Origin: an uncultured Oscillibacter sp.
GTDB lineage: Bacteria > Bacillota > Clostridia > Oscillospirales > Oscillospiraceae
NCBI GenBank assembly: GCA_945868085.1
Contig: CAMBKF010000005.1
Location: 5,507 to 69,506 of the forward strand
DNA: 64,000 bases
Direction: 5' to 3'
The translations under genes and the position numbers were made by a program. Below, in pieces: positions 2,560-25,901 of this stretch (positions within the stretch are counted from its first letter, which is position 1; every line of letters starts with the position of its first letter). The notes below the pieces were generated by a model. The model saw only the letters and a program-made list of their open reading frames with translations. It was not told the DNA's origin and searched no databases.

Positions 2560-3999
2560 ATGAATTATAAGATGGTTTTATTCACCATGGGACGGGTGGT
2601 GCTGCTGGAGGCGGCACTGCTGGTGCTGCCCATGGCGGTTTCCCTGCTGTATGGGGAAAAGTGCGCTCTGAGCTTCGCCCTGACCATTTTAGTGGCCCTG
2701 GCCGTGGGTTTCCTGCTGACGAAGCTGTGCCGGGGTGAGCACGGCAGCAGCTCCATCAAGGACGGGTTCATGATCGTGGCCCTGACCTGGATCATGCTCT
2801 CCGCCATTGGCGCGCTGCCGTTTGTATTCTCCCGGGAGATCCCGCTCTATGTGGACGCATTTTTTGAGACGGTCAGCGGCTTTACCACCACCGGCGCCAC
2901 CATTCTGCCCGATGTGGAGGCCCTGAGCCGGGGAATGCTCTTCTGGCGGAGCTTCACCCACTGGATCGGCGGCATGGGCATCCTGGTGTTCGTGGTGATG
3001 CTGCTGAAGACCCCGGACCGGTCCATCAACATCCTCAAGGCGGAGATGCCCGGCCCCACTGTGGACAAGCTGGCCCCCAAATCCAGGGACACAGCCAGGA
3101 TCCTATATCTGCTGTATATTGCGCTGACTGTGCTGGAGATCGTGTTCCTCCTCTGCGGCGGCATGAGCCTGTTTGACAGCGTGGTACACGCCCTGAGCAC
3201 CGCCGGCACCGGCGGCTTCGGCGCGTACAACGCCAGCGCCGCCAACTTCAGCCCCTACATCCAATGGGTGCTGACGGCGTTCATGTTCCTGTTCGGCGTG
3301 AACTTCAACCTCTACTATCTGCTTCTGCTCAAACGCGGGAGCGAGTTCCTGCGCAACACGGAATTCAAGGTGTATGTGGGCATCGTCCTGGTATCCGTGG
3401 CGGCCATTACCATCGACATCCTGCCCCTGTACCAGTCCTTCTCCGTTTCACTGCGGCAGGCGGCGTTCCAGGTGACCTCCATCATGAGCACCACGGGCTT
3501 TATCACCGCAGACTTTACCGTGTGGTCCCCCCTGAGCAAGATGGTGCTGCTGATGCTGATGTTTGTGGGCGGCTGCGCCGGCAGCACCGCCGGCGGTCTG
3601 AAGGTGTCCCGGCTGGCCATTTTGTGCAAGATGATCCGGCGGGAGCTGCGCCACACCCTGCGGCCCCGGATGGTGGACGTTATCAAGGTGGACGGGCACC
3701 AGCTCAGCGAGCAGACCGCACACAGTATCGTGGTGTATTTTGCCCTGTACATGCTGTGCATTGCGGGGCTGCTGGTGGCGCTGTCCTTCTCCCCCTTCGA
3801 CCTGGAGACGAACCTGTTCGCCTCCATCTCCTGCTTTAACAACGTGGGCCCCGGCTTCGGCATGGTGGGGCCGCTGGGAAACTACTCCCCGTACTCCCCG
3901 GTCATCAAGCTGTTTTTGTGCGCCGGGATGCTGCTGGGGCGGCTGGAGATCTATCCGATGCTGCTGCTGTTTGTGCCGGCGGCGTGGCGGAAGAAGTAA
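2560..3999 (+). CDS. trkH: TrkH-family potassium uptake membrane protein
   Basis: FETVSGFTTTGAT, WIGGMGI, STTGF, GGCAGSTAGGLK, NNVGPG, GRLE pore motifs; many TM segments. Confidence 0.93.
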   Translation: MNYKMVLFTMGRVVLLEAALLVLPMAVSLLYGEKCALSFALTILVALAVGFLLTKLCRGEHGSSSIKDGFMIVALTWIMLSAIGALPFVFSREIPLYVDAFFETVSGFTTTGATILPDVEALSRGMLFWRSFTHWIGGMGILVFVVMLLKTPDRSINILKAEMPGPTVDKLAPKSRDTARILYLLYIALTVLEIVFLLCGGMSLFDSVVHALSTAGTGGFGAYNASAANFSPYIQWVLTAFMFLFGVNFNLYYLLLLKRGSEFLRNTEFKVYVGIVLVSVAAITIDILPLYQSFSVSLRQAAFQVTSIMSTTGFITADFTVWSPLSKMVLLMLMFVGGCAGSTAGGLKVSRLAILCKMIRRELRHTLRPRMVDVIKVDGHQLSEQTAHSIVVYFALYMLCIAGLLVALSFSPFDLETNLFASISCFNNVGPGFGMVGPLGNYSPYSPVIKLFLCAGMLLGRLEIYPMLLLFVPAAWRKK

Positions 4000-4040: not shown

Positions 4041-4230
4041 GGATTGCTACACCAGTGACATTGCCTTTTACAAGAGAGGCTGTGCGGGCCTATGGCGGCG
4101 GGATGTGGGCACCCCGCCCTACGGGCAATTGGATAGACGACGCAGGGGCGGGCAGCGGTGTCCGCCCCTACGCATGGGTTGGTAAATCTGTGCGGATATG
4201 AAACGGGCGGGGTAGAACCCCGCCCCTACG
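4041..4230. repeat. REP-like palindrome cluster (three GTAG-tagged units plus a truncated GGATTGC-type unit)
   Basis: Units such as GGGCGGGGTAGAACCCCGCCCCTAC and GTGGGCACCCCGCCCTAC, recurring elsewhere in the window. Confidence 0.8.
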
Positions 4231-12912: not shown

Positions 12913-13674
12913 ATGACATTGCAGCAACTGAGGTACGCCGTGACCGTGGCCGAGTGCGGCACCATCAGCGCCGCCGCCGAAAAGTTGTTCATCTCCCAGG
13001 CCCAGCTGATGCAGGAGCGGTTCGGCGGCCAGGAACAGGGGGAAAAGCGCTTTGCCGTGTCCAGCCAGCACTTTAACTTCACGGTCTGGGCTTTCACCCA
13101 GCTTGTGCAGCGGCTGCCCAACCAGCGATACAACCTCCACTTCCGGGAGACCACCACCTACGAGGTGCTGGAGGATGTGAGCCAGCTGCGCAGTGAGATC
13201 GGTGTGCTGGCCCTCAACGAGGACAACGAACGCTACCTGCGCCGCCTGTTCAGCAAGCTGGAACTGGAGTTCACAGAGCTAAAGCGTGTGCGCGCATCCA
13301 TTATTATGTCTGCGGAACACCCTCTGGCCGGGCACAGGTCCGTGACAGTGGAGGATGTGATCCCCTACCCCTGCATCACCTTTGAGCAGGGAGAACACAA
13401 TGAGCTGTTCTTTTTTGAGGGACTTTCTGCCGCCGCCCAGTCCCCCCGCCGCATCTGCGTCCGGGAGCGGGCCACCGAGTACCAGCTTCTGCAGGAACTG
13501 AACGGATTCTGCCCGGATGTGGGCGTGGTCTCCCCGGCTATGCCGAATTTTATCAGCGTGCCGCTGCTGCCGGAGAAGTATCACTCTATCGGCTATATCC
13601 TGCGCAGGGATATGACCCCCTCCCCCATGACGCTGGAGTACATCGCGGCCCTGCAGGAAGCGGCGTCGGTATAG
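12913..13674 (+). pseudogene. LysR-family regulator (CmbR/CysR-like) with an in-frame deletion of most of the HTH; probably non-functional
   Basis: MTLQQLRY..GTISAAAEKLFISQ jumps directly to AQLMQERF; the QPSLT..I..LE..G..IF.R segment is absent; 253 aa versus about 300 typical. Confidence 0.75.
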
Positions 13675-13686
13675 AAAAAAACTATA
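13670..13686. promoter_or_regulatory. LysR-type operator (TATAG-N7-CTATA)
   Basis: Perfect dyad TATAGAAAAAAACTATA overlapping the lysR stop codon, upstream of a small gene. Confidence 0.55.
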
Positions 13687-13776
13687 TACAACTTAGTTTT
13701 TGCGTATTTTACAAATAACAGATCTTTCCTTATACTGAAGGCAACAAAACAAAATGCTGAAAGGAGATCTGAAATC

Positions 13777-21252: not shown

Positions 21253-21281
21253 AGTTTAACAGACTTTAGGAAGCCTGTCAA
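21253..21281 (-). promoter_or_regulatory. Sigma-A promoter of rplU-prp-rpmA
   Basis: TTGACA-N17-TAAACT on the minus strand. Confidence 0.75.
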
Positions 21282-21291
21282 CTGATTTGGG

Positions 21292-21306
21292 GAAGTTTTT
21301 CGGCTT
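21292..21306 (+). repeat. Left target-site duplication (15 bp)
   Basis: GAAGTTTTTCGGCTT, identical to 25421-25435. Confidence 0.92.
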
Positions 21307-21372
21307 TGTTGATTTACACTCTTATTGCAAAGTTCTTTCGAACTAAAAATTAACGAAAAGAGGTATTTCAAC

Positions 21373-21612
21373 ATGAAAATCAAAGTCTGTGGTAAGGCGC
21401 ACCTGGAGGGTGTAGCGAAGAAAACCGGTCGGCCCTACAACTTCAATCAGATTCACTACCTCGGCAAGGCCCGTGGTGTCATCGGCGAAGCGGCCCTGAC
21501 CATCGCCCTGGATCCCGACATCTATCCTATCGAAATGATCGAAGTCGGCAAGGAGTACAACGTTGACTTCGACAATCGTGGCTACGTCTTCGACTTCTCC
21601 CCGGCGAAGTGA
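21373..21612 (+). CDS. Putative ssDNA-binding protein (filamentous phage pV-like), 79 aa
   Basis: GVAKKTGRPYNFNQ resembles the pV DNA-binding wing (M13 GVSRQGKPYSLNEQ); RBS GAGGT; adjacent to origin and rep. Confidence 0.65.
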   Translation: MKIKVCGKAHLEGVAKKTGRPYNFNQIHYLGKARGVIGEAALTIALDPDIYPIEMIEVGKEYNVDFDNRGYVFDFSPAK

Positions 21613-21659
21613 TGGACAAGCCAACTTTCCCATTCCCATTTCCGCGTGTCCCTCCATAG

Positions 21660-21713
21660 CCATAGGGCGGCGCAGCCGCCCTATGGGGCAGGGGGTCAGT
21701 ATTACCCCCCTGC
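21660..21713 (+). other. Rolling-circle double-strand origin: two hairpins, the second with CAGTATTAC in its loop
   Basis: CCATAGGGCGGC-GCA-GCCGCCCTATGG then GCAGGGGG-TCAGTATTAC-CCCCCTGC; nonamer at 21697-21705. Confidence 0.8.
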
Positions 21714-21770
21714 AACTTCTGTGAATCTGTGATTCTTTGACAATGATTTGTCAATCTTTGGAGGTATTTT

Positions 21771-22175
21771 ATGCCACGCTCCCGGAAATGGCTTATCACC
21801 ATCAATAACCCCATTGAGCATGATTTTGACCATGCCCGTATTAAGGCCGCTGTACTTGACTTCCCATCCCTCGTCTACTGGTGTATGTGCGATGAACAGG
21901 GCGATGAATGCGAAACGCTTCATACCCATGTGTATGTTGTTACTCGTGAGGCTACAAGCCACACGCAAATTGACGCTCGTTTCCCCTCGTTCCACCGCGA
22001 CATTGCCCGTGGCAAGTCCTCGGAAAACCGTGCCTACGTCCTCAAGGACGGCGAGAAGTTCAACAAGCAGTCGGACGGCTCCTACTCCTACAAGGACACC
22101 GGCGGCCACCTCCATGAAGGTATCAACTTTTCTTGCCAAAAAGGACATGAAAAAAGGTCGCAAGGTTTGGTCTAA
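21771..22175 (+). pseudogene. rep: CRESS-type HUH rolling-circle Rep, endonuclease domain only (truncated near 22130)
   Basis: Motif I WLITINNP, motif II LHTHVYV, motif III ENRAYVLK; RBS GGAGGT; no helicase domain follows. Confidence 0.82.
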
Positions 22176-22629
22176 CTTCGGCATTACCGGTGCTTATAAA
22201 TGTGAAAAATCCGACTTCGGCAAATACATGATGTCCGATGGCCGTCTTATCATAGATGAAGCTGGCTTGGAATACGATAATCGTAAAATGGCTATGACCA
22301 ACGATGAAATTTATTTCTTCAAATATCATCGTCATTACCAACTGGACGTCGATTTCTTTTCCCAGGGTTTGGACGTTGATATAAAAATTCGTAAGCTTGC
22401 CCGTCATATCTATCTGATTAAGCCCTCTTTGCTCCCGTTCTTTATCAAGAGAAAAGAAATTGGACGTAGAGTAGGTATCAATGATATGACTAAAGAAATA
22501 TGTGATGAATATTTCTTTGTCCCGTTTCTTACTGGTGGTACTAAATTAATATTCTGCCCTCCCCTCTGGAAACTCTTTAATACCCTGGCCCGGAAACCTC
22601 TTCCGGAAAAACACTGGGAAACATGGTGA
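22114..22629 (+). pseudogene. Zot/pI-like morphogenesis ATPase, N-terminally truncated
   Basis: STFLA (Walker A tail), VWSNF, LIIDEAG (Walker B), HRHYQLDVDFFSQ..DIKIRKL; GxxGxGK and TM segment missing. Confidence 0.75.
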
Positions 22630-22702
22630 AGCCCCCGCCGCCTGGCTGGGGCTTTTCCTCTGCCCATAAAAAGCGGAGGATATATGAATATACCCCCCGC
22701 TC
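22629..22702. terminator. Paired terminators between convergent element modules
   Basis: AAGCCCC..GGGGCTTTT and AGCGGAGGATATA..TATACCCCCCGCT hairpins. Confidence 0.55.
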
Positions 22703-22734
22703 TAATTTGCGCTGTTTTTACCCCCGGTAAAAAG

Positions 22735-22935
22735 TTATCCTACGATTTCGTACCCATTGCGTACAAGCCATGCCCGCGCCTGGTGTTCCTGGGCAAAAGT
22801 CCGGCTCTTGCGCTTTTGCCTGTCCCGCCCGGTGATGGCCTGGCCGCTGGCCGCCTGTATCTGATACCGGACTTTATCGTGCTTGATAACGCAGTTATAA
22901 TAGACTGCCTGGCCCTGGCCGTTGATTGCTTTCAT
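22735..22935 (-). CDS. Hypothetical protein (66 aa), element cargo
   Basis: RBS GAGGTG before ATG; co-oriented with the SprT gene. Confidence 0.65.
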   Translation of the reverse strand: MKAINGQGQAVYYNCVIKHDKVRYQIQAASGQAITGRDRQKRKSRTFAQEHQARAWLVRNGYEIVG

Positions 22936-22981
22936 TCGCCCACCTCTTTCGTTCTTTCTCCCCGTCCAGCCGATAGGGCAG

Positions 22982-23002
22982 CTTTTGAATCTACACTTTC
23001 AA
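22982..23002 (+). repeat. 21-bp internal direct repeat, copy 1
   Basis: CTTTTGAATCTACACTTTCAA, identical to 24318-24338. Confidence 0.85.
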
Positions 23003-23181
23003 TTTGTCTCTTTGCACCGTACACGCACGGTGATACTCTCCACATTGGGGTGTGTGAATTGATACGCCTCTATCCATTTTGCAATGTCCTTGAGCGGCAT
23101 TGCCTGGTAGTGCTGAGTTTTGTTGTCTATGCCCGGAAAATAGCACCGGATGCTCATTTGGTATTCTTTCGCCTGTTTCAT
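22999..23181 (-). CDS. Hypothetical protein (60 aa), element cargo
   Basis: ATGA overlap with the SprT stop, RBS GGAGGT; MKQAKEYQMSIRCYFPG.. Confidence 0.65.
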   Translation of the reverse strand: MKQAKEYQMSIRCYFPGIDNKTQHYQAMPLKDIAKWIEAYQFTHPNVESITVRVRCKETN

Positions 23182-23837
23182 TCGGCCACCTCCATTTTCT
23201 CCATGCAGTCCCCACAAATGAGGTTGACCGCCTTGGTGGCCCGGACACTGTTCTTGCAGCACGGACAGATATATTTCCGTGTGCTGCTGCGCTTCGGCGG
23301 CTGTACGCTCCCGCCTGGCTGTGTGCCGCTGTTCCCGGCCTTGCCGCCGCTGCTCGGTGGTGGTGTCCATCCGCCGCCCCGGTTCATTTGGATTTCCGTC
23401 CAGCCCTGCGCAATGATGTAGTCTATAAGTGCTTCGCTCGGTTCCGTCAGCGTCCATCCGTATGTTGGATGATGGGAAATCACCAGGCCCCGCCGCTCTG
23501 CTTCCTCTTTGAATTTCTTGTTGTGGTAGCTGCCGCCCCGGCTGCAATCCTGCACCCCGTGAGCGAGATTGTAGAGGTGTACGGCCTCATGCGTGATGGT
23601 GGCCACCACTTCCTCTATTGGCCTTTGCAGCGTCTCCGCTCCTATGTTCAGTTCATGCCGCTGCTCCCCCTTGCGCTTCCATATCTTGGCCACTGTAACG
23701 TGTCCATAGGCCCGTGGGGTGCTCTGTATGGTGATAATTGGTTCTTCCAGCTCCCCGCCAAACCAATCCGCATTGATTGCCCGGAAAATCTTCTCCAGGT
23801 AGCCCGCTGTCCTGCTGGTCTTGATAGTCTCTTTCAT
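23178..23837 (-). CDS. SprT-like zinc metalloprotease with C-terminal zinc ribbon
   Basis: IN..WFGGEL, HEAVH, YHNKKFK..A, YICPCC..LICGDC; RBS AAGGAG. Confidence 0.82.
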   Translation of the reverse strand: MKETIKTSRTAGYLEKIFRAINADWFGGELEEPIITIQSTPRAYGHVTVAKIWKRKGEQRHELNIGAETLQRPIEEVVATITHEAVHLYNLAHGVQDCSRGGSYHNKKFKEEAERRGLVISHHPTYGWTLTEPSEALIDYIIAQGWTEIQMNRGGGWTPPPSSGGKAGNSGTQPGGSVQPPKRSSTRKYICPCCKNSVRATKAVNLICGDCMEKMEVAE

Positions 23838-23899
23838 GTTCTGTTCTCCTTTACCCCGCTAAAGCGGATTTTGTCTTTAGATTTGAACCCTGAGCCCCT

Positions 23900-24056
23900 A
23901 TGTCGGATTTGACTTTTTACCTCCTTTGCTATAATTTTTAGGGTGATGGGCGTAAACCGAAGGGAAAATCTTCCCCCGCGATTTTGCCTTTGAGTTTTCG
24001 CCCGTCGCCCATTAAGAAAATTTTTGCAAAGGAGGTAAAAAGTCATATTCCGACAT
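23900..24056. other. Long imperfect hairpin (about 70-bp arms) in the element's non-coding region
   Basis: ATGTCGGA..TGACTTTTTACCTCCTTTGC.. pairs with ..GCAAAGGAGGTAAAAAGTCA..TCCGACAT. Confidence 0.8.
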
Positions 24057-24317
24057 TGGTCGTTAGACCAATACCTCGGGTGGAACCGTATATTAAGTTT
24101 TTGCCGTCCCCCGCAAGGCAAAAAGTTAATATGCGAAAGTCCACCCATCCCAGCGCAGCAGCGCTGTGCCTGTTCCCGTCCCGCCGCAGCGATAACCCTC
24201 GTCCCTCGTCTCCGCAGCAGCGGACAACAGGCACTTGCGCTATGCGGAAAAGTATGGTATCATGGCAAAAACAAACGCCAAGGCAGAAATGCCCCGGCGT
24301 TTGCTGCATTTTATGGC

Positions 24318-24338
24318 CTTTTGAATCTACACTTTCAA
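24318..24338 (+). repeat. 21-bp internal direct repeat, copy 2, abutting the transposase RBS
   Basis: CTTTTGAATCTACACTTTCAA followed by AGGAAAACAGCC-ATG. Confidence 0.85.
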
Positions 24339-24350
24339 AGGAAAACAGCC

Positions 24351-25379
24351 ATGAAGAAATACCGCCGTATAGACTGGAATGACCGCTTGCTCATTGAAAA
24401 GCTCTATAATCACGGTCAAAACTGCTCCAGCATAGCGCATGTTCTCGGTTTCTCTCCCTCCTCCATCTACCGTGAAATAAAGCATGGCCTGTACCCGCAC
24501 CTGGGCGCAGAAACCACCCGGCGACCATTTCATTACTCTGCGCAAATCGCCCAGGACCACGCCGATTACCACGCCACCTCAAAAGGCACACAAATAAAGC
24601 TGGGCAACAACTACGGCTTCGCCGCAGATGTTGCCCAGCAAGTCAAGCATGGCATCTCTATTGATGTAATTGTAAACCAAAAGAAGCAGGCCAAACAGTG
24701 GACAGTCAGCACTACCACTCTATATCGCTACATAGATCGCGGCTATATCCCCGGCGTTACCAATAAGCACCTCCCGGAAAAGCCCCGCCGCAAGCATCGC
24801 AAGCCCGGCATGGTAAAGGCCACTCGGGCACCGAAAGGGCTCCCCATAGACCGCCGCCCGGCCCACATAAACCGCCGCTTGTCCTTTGGCCATTGGGAAA
24901 TGGACAGTGTCATAGGCACCGCAGAAGGCAAGCGGCAATCCCTCCTTGTCCTCACCGAACGCCTTACCCGTTTTGAAATCATCTTCAGAGCCAGCAGCAA
25001 GACCGCAGCAGCCACCACTAAGGCCCTAGATAGAATCATTCCTCAATTCCCGCAATGTACATTCCAAACGATAACCGTGGACAATGGCAGCGAATTCCAG
25101 GACTGTCATGGTATGGAGCATGATAAGCAAGGCAACCAGCGTCTGACCGTCTATTACTGCCATCCTTATTCCTCCTGTGAGCGTGGCAGCAATGAGCGCA
25201 ATAACCGAATCATTCGCCGTTACTTCCCCAAAGGCAGGAGCATGGCGAAAGTCACACAAAAGGACTGCGACAAAGCCGCAGCCCTCATAAACGCCATGCC
25301 CCGAAAAATCCTCAATTACCAATCCGCTGCTGACCTATTTAATCGAGAAATCGAAAACTTGCTCAAAAATCAAAAGTGA
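24351..25379 (+). CDS. IS30-family DDE transposase
   Basis: N-terminal HTH (IA..LG..PSSIYREIK), TTLYRYI, I..RP, GHWEMDSVIG, TITVDNGSEF, YYCHPYSSCERGSNE..N..IRR..PKG. Confidence 0.95.
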   Translation: MKKYRRIDWNDRLLIEKLYNHGQNCSSIAHVLGFSPSSIYREIKHGLYPHLGAETTRRPFHYSAQIAQDHADYHATSKGTQIKLGNNYGFAADVAQQVKHGISIDVIVNQKKQAKQWTVSTTTLYRYIDRGYIPGVTNKHLPEKPRRKHRKPGMVKATRAPKGLPIDRRPAHINRRLSFGHWEMDSVIGTAEGKRQSLLVLTERLTRFEIIFRASSKTAAATTKALDRIIPQFPQCTFQTITVDNGSEFQDCHGMEHDKQGNQRLTVYYCHPYSSCERGSNERNNRIIRRYFPKGRSMAKVTQKDCDKAAALINAMPRKILNYQSAADLFNREIENLLKNQK

Positions 25380-25420
25380 TATTCTTACGAAACTTTTTGC
25401 AATGGACTTGACAATCTACA

Positions 25421-25435
25421 GAAGTTTTTCGGCTT
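25421..25435 (+). repeat. Right target-site duplication (15 bp)
   Basis: GAAGTTTTTCGGCTT; overlaps the luxS stop codon. Confidence 0.92.
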
Positions 25436-25901
25436 ATTTTGTGGGATATCTGAGCTTTTCCTCCGTCCAGGAGGCGATGAGGTCGCGATACCAGGCGCAG
25501 CAGGCCCGGCCCTCCTCCACACTGAGGTTTTTATAGTTGCCGCACTCGGCGGCGGAGCAGCCGGGCATGGGGCCGCTATACTCGGCGGCCCGGGCGAAAA
25601 CCGACTGCAGGAGGGCGATGGACTGGGAAAGAGTCAGCTTGTCCCCGTCAAAGAGGAAGTAAAAGCCCGTCTGACAGCCCATGGGGCCGAAGTAGATCAC
25701 CGCGTCCCGGCTCTCGGAATTGCGCAGGAAGGTGGCGATGAGATGCTCCACGGAGTGCATCTGACTGTTGGACAGCAGGTCTCCGGTGTTGGGCTTTTTG
25801 AACCGCAGGTCAAGGGTCACCACGTTCCCGTCCCGACGGGAGAGGTACAGGCCGGGCACCAGCACATTGTGGTCCACGGTAAAGCTGGCGATACGTTCCA
25901 T
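25434..25901 (-). CDS. luxS: S-ribosylhomocysteine lyase
   Basis: IASFTVDH, DLRF..PN, HSVEH, GPMGCQTGFY, CGNY. Confidence 0.96.
   Translation of the reverse strand: MERIASFTVDHNVLVPGLYLSRRDGNVVTLDLRFKKPNTGDLLSNSQMHSVEHLIATFLRNSESRDAVIYFGPMGCQTGFYFLFDGDKLTLSQSIALLQSVFARAAEYSGPMPGCSAAECGNYKNLSVEEGRACCAWYRDLIASWTEEKLRYPTK

Follow-up and report, generated by a model that had tools for sequence, protein, structure and literature searches.

The window, a stretch of 64,000 nucleotides from an uncultured Oscillibacter sp., carries between rplU and luxS a 4.1-kb remnant (21307-25420) of an inovirus-like prophage of about 9.6 kb. The remnant is flanked by a 15-bp target-site duplication, GAAGTTTTTCGGCTT, with the left copy at 21292-21306 and the right copy at 25421-25435, at the 3' end of luxS, and is bounded by an imperfect 26-bp terminal inverted repeat at its left end (21307-21332) and by the corresponding repeat at its right end (25395-25420). 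From left to right, the plus strand holds a gene for an RstB-like protein of 79 aa, likely a single-stranded DNA-binding protein (21373-21612; PHROG 929, E 8e-8; Pfam CTX_RstB, E 0.002, which is below the cut-off), two adjacent hairpins with short tandem repeats, a truncated rep gene (21771-22175) and the 3' fragment of a gene for a morphogenesis ATPase of the pI/Zot family (22133-22629; Pfam Zot, E 1e-4; PHROG head morphogenesis), which is whole in relatives and lacks its start and the Walker A region here. These are followed by a leftward accessory operon on the minus strand (22735-23837), encoding a SprT-like protein (23178-23837) and two small ORFs, by a long, near-perfect hairpin with 32-bp outer arms (23896-24058) and by an open frame for an IS30-family transposase on the plus strand (24351-25379; NCBIfam NF033563, 228 bits against a cut-off of 80).

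Similarity to related elements begins exactly at 21307 and breaks at 22132/22133, the junction of a deletion of about 5.5-5.8 kb relative to intact relatives. The additional part of the intact relative L002 comprises the helicase half of Rep, a 734-aa ORF, several hydrophobic ORFs of 48-64 aa (one small ORF was modelled as all-helical) and the start of the ATPase gene. The deletion was bridged by contigs in four of four sequencing runs from four studies, and the joint, as defined against the intact element L003, was present in all four, some of which may be the window's own source. Most of the deleted part was without cover in these runs, which was not counted as evidence. The deletion is real, not an assembly artefact. 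Lost with it were the Rep helicase and the structural genes, the coat genes included; what remains is the origin, the two element ends, the transposase and the nuclease part of Rep. Among same-genus genomes the rplU-luxS interval (21260-25440 in the window) varies in length between roughly 100 bp and roughly 5 kb; the element was absent from it in the 24 same-genus genomes searched, and the empty-site joint was found in run X12.

The break of rep after codon 121 and its out-of-frame fusion to the fragment of the packaging-ATPase gene are absent from the initial annotation. The product (Pfam Viral_Rep, E 2e-8) consists of the endonuclease domain (aa 1-121) and a short out-of-frame tail, contains motif I, motif II (HTH) and motif III (YVLK, with Y89 and K92), is 92% identical over 121 aa to the full-length Rep P0002 and has, by the domain limits of a structural model, lost the oligomerisation and SF3 helicase domains. 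Since it stops at the end of the nuclease domain, it may have kept the ability to nick DNA and should not unwind it. Y89 and K92 are invariant in 87 homologues, and the full-length homologues (about 340-350 aa) contain the HUH motifs, Walker A, Walker B with glutamates and the motif C asparagine. The motifs agree, by eye, with the pCRESS2 alignment rows of Kazlauskas et al. 2019 (PMC6668415; RKW-TINNP, HTH, YRVTDY, EEFR, LNYLDGYP), and it is by eye against these rows that the Rep is assigned to the pCRESS2 type. The best sequence match in the PDB was PCV2 Rep (E 6e-19); the closest solved sequences were the Reps of PCV2 and Vientovirus (redondovirus), with weaker matches to nanovirus-type domains. 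A single-protein scan of viral contigs returned no relative; an alignment-based search did find relatives.

Upstream of rep, a perfect, GC-rich 12-bp hairpin (21660-21686; arms 21660-21671 and 21675-21686, loop GCA) stands 5' of a second stem-loop on the plus strand (21688-21713). In the 8-bp stem of the latter, GCAGGGGG (21688-21695) pairs with CCCCCTGC (21706-21713) through seven G-C pairs and one A-T pair, and its loop, TCAGTATTAC (21696-21705), contains the nonamer CAGTATTAC (21697-21705), in which TATT^AC puts the predicted nick between 21703 and 21704. On the same strand, rep starts with an ATG at 21771, 57 bp 3' of the stem. Such a nonanucleotide at the apex of a stem-loop is the site at which circo-, nano- and geminivirus Reps nick between TATT and AC. 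The 8-bp GC stem with the nonamer in its loop, the perfect 12-bp hairpin beside it and the 57-bp spacing had all been reported in the initial annotation and were recovered here. The minimum-energy DNA fold is the double hairpin (-25 kcal/mol, z -5.4), a score that none of 200 shuffles equalled. Without its stem, the motif occurs in the window at chance level (three matches against 1.7 expected); among the 141 NANTATTAC matches in the genome, that of the window's origin is the only one in a stem of at least 8 bp. No Rfam family reached its gathering score, and the 12-bp hairpin was not scored as a terminator. At the 3' foot of the origin stem, tandem repeats of 7-8 bp form a predicted Rep-binding site on the plus strand (21720-21742), namely TGTGAAT (21720-21726), TGTGATT (21728-21734) and a degenerate TTTGACA (21736-21742). 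A 7-bp inverted repeat, TTGACAA/TTGTCAA, at 21737-21754, between these repeats and the ribosome-binding site of rep, is a possible operator.

Conservation of the hairpin upstream of related rep genes

Homologous loci (153 fetched, in addition to the window's own) yielded a usable upstream region in 148 cases and were de-duplicated by Rep identity to 105 at the 90% level and 70 at the 70% level. NANTATTAC was present at most 400 bp upstream of rep in 97 of the 105 and in 64 of the 70 loci, and was missing in six of the latter; TAGTATTAC was the commonest nonamer (45 of 64), followed by CAGTATTAC (14). The motif stood in a stem of at least 6 bp in 58 of the 70 homologues, compared with five of 3,666 control windows and three of 70 on the opposite strand. 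A locus's own stem arms paired over 9.8 bp on average and over at least 8 bp in 57 of 63 cases, as against 1.9% of 3,906 combinations of swapped arms; with 52 different 3' arms, the stems vary in sequence and yet match their own partners, i.e., they co-vary. In a later scan of metagenome loci, which are partly close to the earlier ones and of which 13 of 80 were skipped for a short or missing 5' end, the motif was found at 63 of 67. Each of five circular GenBank genomes labelled Inoviridae, the records that bear here on the circular ssDNA expected of inoviruses, contains one TAGTATTAC, unannotated, in a hairpin upstream of rep and on the rep strand. Some 90% of the related elements share this arrangement of origin before rep. 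Conservation upstream of homologous reps had been proposed as a check of the view that the hairpin is the cognate double-strand origin, and this view is strongly supported by the motif, its co-varying stem and the adjoining iteron-like repeats.

Regarding the 70 loci, a pI/Zot-like ATPase gene was found at 38 and an FtsK-like one at 10, with neither at 22 within the available DNA; the viral collection is likely biased towards pI elements. Since pI and FtsK elements alike possess the origin, it is a property of the Rep family. The conserved hairpin is not a chance motif, and its placement suggests that it is likely the start site of rolling-circle copying. A neighbouring hairpin of at least 7 bp was present at 18 of 63 origins, where about one was expected, so that the 12-bp hairpin has counterparts without being universal in the family; that it is a packaging signal specific to pI elements was ruled out by its frequency at pI (8/32) and FtsK (5/10) loci. 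A segment of 57 bp with 91% identity to the origin region, possibly an orphan origin, was observed in a complete same-genus genome (G023:C1:886574-886630), in which no match to the Rep profile was obtained.

Element ends, mobility and fate of the deleted copy

The catalytic residues D185, D244 and E282 of the transposase are invariant, and they are intact in the window. Target duplications of 14-18 bp, each at a different site, were found at 11 of 14 complete relatives; the other three lack an exact duplication. In L220 (112-165), the right end, the dinucleotide AA and the left end follow each other between the transposase and RstB-like genes, as expected of an IS30-type circle or tandem dimer; this junction is a direct sign of a circular or tandem state in the phage clade. 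Ends and junction together suggest that these phages are mobilised as entire genomes by their IS30 transposase. The DDE transposase, the imperfect terminal inverted repeats of about 26 bp and the end-to-end junction with a 2-bp spacer are shared with IS30-family insertion sequences; here, unlike in those, the repeats bracket an entire phage of 8-10 kb and the duplications are 14-18 bp long. Target duplications of IS30 are typically 2-3 bp, and IS30 subgroups with long duplications exist. No further copies of the terminal repeats were found in the window's own assembly. By eye, end-like repeats abut in two circular GenBank genomes that carry a transposase, L188 (about 4170-4215) and L189 (about 3700-3750), with a spacer of about 10 nt which differs between the two. 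Regarding the hairpin upstream of the transposase gene (about 160 nt; RNA fold -93 kcal/mol), it could control transposase expression or be a packaging signal of single-stranded DNA; long inverted repeats unrelated in sequence occur a short way before the transposase gene in L004, L010, L011, L012, L026, L027, L030, L043, L047, L050 and L189, and none was found in seven of nine FtsK-type loci. In the treatment of inovirus transposases by Roux et al. (PMC6813254), domesticated and passenger copies are described as indistinguishable by sequence; here, unlike in that case, the two are distinguished by the ends, the duplications and the circle junction.

In an intact element, the transposase would join the two ends into a circle, Rep would bind the tandem repeats through residues beside motif I and just after motif II, the stem would extrude, Y89 would cut at TATT^AC (21703/21704 in the window) and the SF3 helicase would unwind the duplex. 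The displaced strand would be re-cut and closed at the regenerated nonamer and coated by the RstB-like protein, pI-bearing elements would extrude a filamentous virion, and the transposase would reinsert the circle at a new site. The steps of binding, extrusion, nicking and unwinding are modelled on CRESS-virus biochemistry as presented in PMC8780604 and PMC10653810.

Without a helper, the window's copy of the element is predicted to be replication-dead; most likely it is a passive passenger of the chromosome, and it is probably a dead or inactive remnant. The proposal that its intact origin could be served in trans by a helper Rep was strongly supported as far as the origin is concerned; replication of this copy in trans is possible and is unsupported, with no helper found and a flat depth. 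Helper replication would moreover need prior excision, since one integrated origin has no termination site and should give no unit-length circle unless excised first. It is unlikely that the remnant is an active satellite, excised by its transposase and replicated, perhaps also packaged, by a co-infecting relative of the same Rep specificity. In favour of this, neither the ends nor the DDE triad nor any part of the origin is damaged; L166, from a same-genus genome, and L198 have full-length Reps whose specificity residues and repeats are identical to those of the window; the Rep profile was matched in 17 of 97 same-genus genomes; and contigs with related longer rep genes co-occur in three of the four runs, although elements found together in a gut sample need not share a cell. 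Other short elements have also kept the origin, namely L010 (4.1 kb) and L203 (3.0 kb). Against this, protein search, tblastn and HMM search detected no second Rep in the window's own assembly (84.5% complete), contig depth over the element equals that of the flanks in four runs, no amplification or end-to-end circle joint was listed among the contigs of these runs (contigs drop rare forms), and the remnant was seen at one site only. The elements L010 (7512-11653) and L203 (1687-4640) each keep their ends, the origin and a full Rep, and have target duplications of their own.

Tandem repeats and Rep residues 3 and 63

A direct repeat of at least 6 nt, mostly with a 7-bp period, was found just 3' of the stem at 42 of 63 origins; by the same criterion it was found upstream of the stem at three of 63, and in 5% of shuffles. 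The bases of the repeat were scanned against about 140 Rep columns, and the association peaked at Rep position 63 with base 6 and at Rep position 3 with base 4. Among 52 loci (the 95 remaining at 85% identity, less seven without the motif and 36 without a callable repeat), R or K at position 3 was accompanied by G at base 4 in 14 of 17 (other residues, 0/35), and R at position 63 by C at base 6 in 30 of 34 (other residues, 0/18), figures to be read in the light of the fact that the two columns were chosen after a scan of overlapping data; the cross-pairings of the two residues and the two bases showed no association. On a tree built without columns 3 and 63, position 3 shared 12 of the 12 changes of base 4 (seven for the best other column of 1,143 tests), and position 63 was barely ahead, with seven changes compared with six for the next column. 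Five independent pairs for each position, a number insufficient to reach significance, gave 4.7 and 4.4 concordant and no opposite ones (p 0.06 and 0.125). The pattern was also followed by nine later loci whose repeat could be called, none of which had R/K3, and at metagenome loci R3 went with G in 11 of 14 cases (others, 0/15) and R63 with C in three of four (others, 2/25, one of the two being an offset caused by an insertion). Exceptions are R3 with A at base 4 in 3/14 new combinations and R3 with C in 3/15 of the 52-locus set. The association persists among Reps more than 85% identical; in L201, which is 94% identical to P0002, both residues and both bases are switched. The window's Rep has R3 and S63. 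A short hypervariable segment after motif II, Rep residues 58-66 (L193-L272), was seen to be swapped wholesale together with the repeat among Reps more than 85% identical, which suggests an exchange of specificity modules.

The specificity residues of begomovirus Reps are placed by a review among the first 20 residues and some 60 positions beyond (PMC10880892), and an N-terminal determinant is described for circo- and nanoviruses (PMC3187698); the match in position to these eukaryotic determinants supports, and does not prove, that the repeats are iterons bound by Rep. Quite unlikely is the alternative that the hairpin is the real origin while the repeats are a repressor operator or an element of the rep promoter, correlated with Rep through shared descent or recombination blocks. 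In its favour, the repeats stand immediately before rep in tight linkage with the 5' end of the gene, significance is not reached in the independent-pairs test and exceptions exist; against it, the association peaks, among about 140 columns, at two single ones 60 residues apart, where reviews put the eukaryotic specificity residues (PMC10880892), is missing from the cross-pairings and holds among Reps more than 85% identical. The preferred reading, to which a probability of about 0.88 is given, is that the hairpin, its nonanucleotide and the repeats, conserved upstream of pCRESS2-type rep genes, are likely a plus-strand rolling-circle origin, located here within an inovirus-like prophage that has suffered a deletion and the ends of which are likely the work of its IS30-family transposase.

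Regarding the truncated Rep, it could be imagined to have been kept for host protection, the nuclease-only protein binding or nicking the origin of an incoming cognate phage and so blocking its replication. N-terminal fragments of geminivirus Reps can be dominant-negative, the cut in the window coincides with the close of the endonuclease domain, and 17 contigs carry the very same 134-aa product; however, the host flanks are equally identical across runs, so that clonal descent suffices for the identical Rep, and a single deletion event is represented, which makes this a very improbable explanation. That the motif arose by chance within a GC-rich hairpin resembling a terminator, or that the assembly is chimeric, is already refuted in spite of the chance-level frequency of the bare motif in the window, given the family-wide conservation, the stem co-variation, the hairpin's failure to score as a terminator and the confirmation of the deletion junction in runs from several studies.

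Comparison with known replicons

The locus resembles the origins of circoviruses and nanoviruses (Cressdnaviricota) in having a NAGTATTAC loop in a variable stem with short tandem repeats beside it, and, in its full-length relatives, a Rep with HUH nuclease and SF3 helicase. As in begomoviruses as reviewed (PMC10880892, PMC3187698), the repeat sequence goes with one residue next to motif I and with another 60 aa further on. Unlike circoviruses and nanoviruses, the host is a bacterium, rep follows the stem after 57 bp and is encoded on its strand, a jelly-roll capsid was not found, integration would be by a DDE transposase and the intact size is 8-10 kb; membership of Circoviridae or Nanoviridae is at odds with the location in a bacterial chromosome between rplU and luxS and with the lack of any capsid match in the intact relative L002 (Pfam, PHROGs). 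The Rep motifs, Walker B glutamates, motif C Asn and Clostridia hosts are those of the pCRESS2 elements of Kazlauskas et al. 2019 (PMC6668415). That paper presents pCRESS2 as plasmids integrated by tyrosine recombinases, with an FtsK-like ATPase and without viral structural genes, and gives no origin, the terms 'TATTAC' and 'stem-loop' being absent from its main text. Unlike pCRESS2 as so described, 38 of the 70 loci here encode a pI/Zot-like and 10 an FtsK-like ATPase, and the window's clade is bounded by IS30-type ends; instead of the features of an integrated plasmid, an IS30 transposase, terminal inverted repeats and a pI-like ATPase were found.

Inoviruses with a CRESS-type Rep have already been described, namely ctbe30 and ctbc27 (Tisza et al. 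2020, PMC7000223) and iPF_00203 (Roux et al. 2019, PMC6813254), and as far as these accounts go the present elements share with them the CRESS-type Rep, a Zot-like ATPase, an RstB-like gene, small coat-like genes and prophage relatives in bacterial chromosomes. Six GenBank records, including 'bajarodino' viruses, showed 42-46% Rep identity, two of them with a transposase. No origin or iteron is annotated in five GenBank records of CRESS-Rep inoviruses, and none is given in the published descriptions covered. Vespertiliovirus (Spiroplasma inoviruses) also has an IS30/IS3 transposase, but lacks a Rep (PMC6668415). Gut Enterocloster inoviruses are secreted, and the two Reps listed for them in the part of the report consulted (PMC10061712) are of other types; an identity of the secreted Enterocloster citroniae inovirus with the pCRESS2 element CloCit-E1 was ruled out, its listed Rep being of another type.

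Literature searches, with subscription journals largely outside their coverage, turned up no description of the nonamer origin with its repeats, of the residue code, or of long-duplication IS30 or transposase-made ends, which is not proof of absence. What appears to be new are the tandem repeats at the 3' foot of the stem, whose sequence seems to track Rep residues 3 and 63 as eukaryotic CRESS iterons track their specificity determinants. More tentatively, and rather doubtful as a whole, the complete origin logic of eukaryotic CRESS replicons (hairpin, iterons and a two-site residue-base code) may already be at work in gut bacteria, in a large replicon family that includes many filamentous phages; these would integrate as long-duplication IS30 transposons with fast Rep-iteron diversification, and deleted copies, that in the window among them, would be helper-dependent satellites. 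The proposed bacterial pCRESS ancestry of eukaryotic CRESS viruses has so far rested on Rep protein trees; the present finding adds the cis-acting half, in that the bacterial family shares nick-site sequence, stem and iteron logic with these viruses, and the link thereby becomes testable with one small protein and an oligonucleotide. The dozens of natural Rep-repeat pairs, some switching at more than 85% identity, also form a data set on how HUH Reps read double-stranded origins, a recognition called structurally unexplained in a review (PMC8780604).

The designation as inovirus rests on the pI ATPase, the gene layout and the GenBank labels, because the coat proteins match no family: those of intact relatives gave no match to a Pfam or PHROG coat family. 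In L002, two tandem, near-duplicate genes for hydrophobic proteins of 57-59 aa (13348-13743) were observed just before the pI gene; these are candidate duplicated major coat proteins, for which a single-sequence model gives only two helices.
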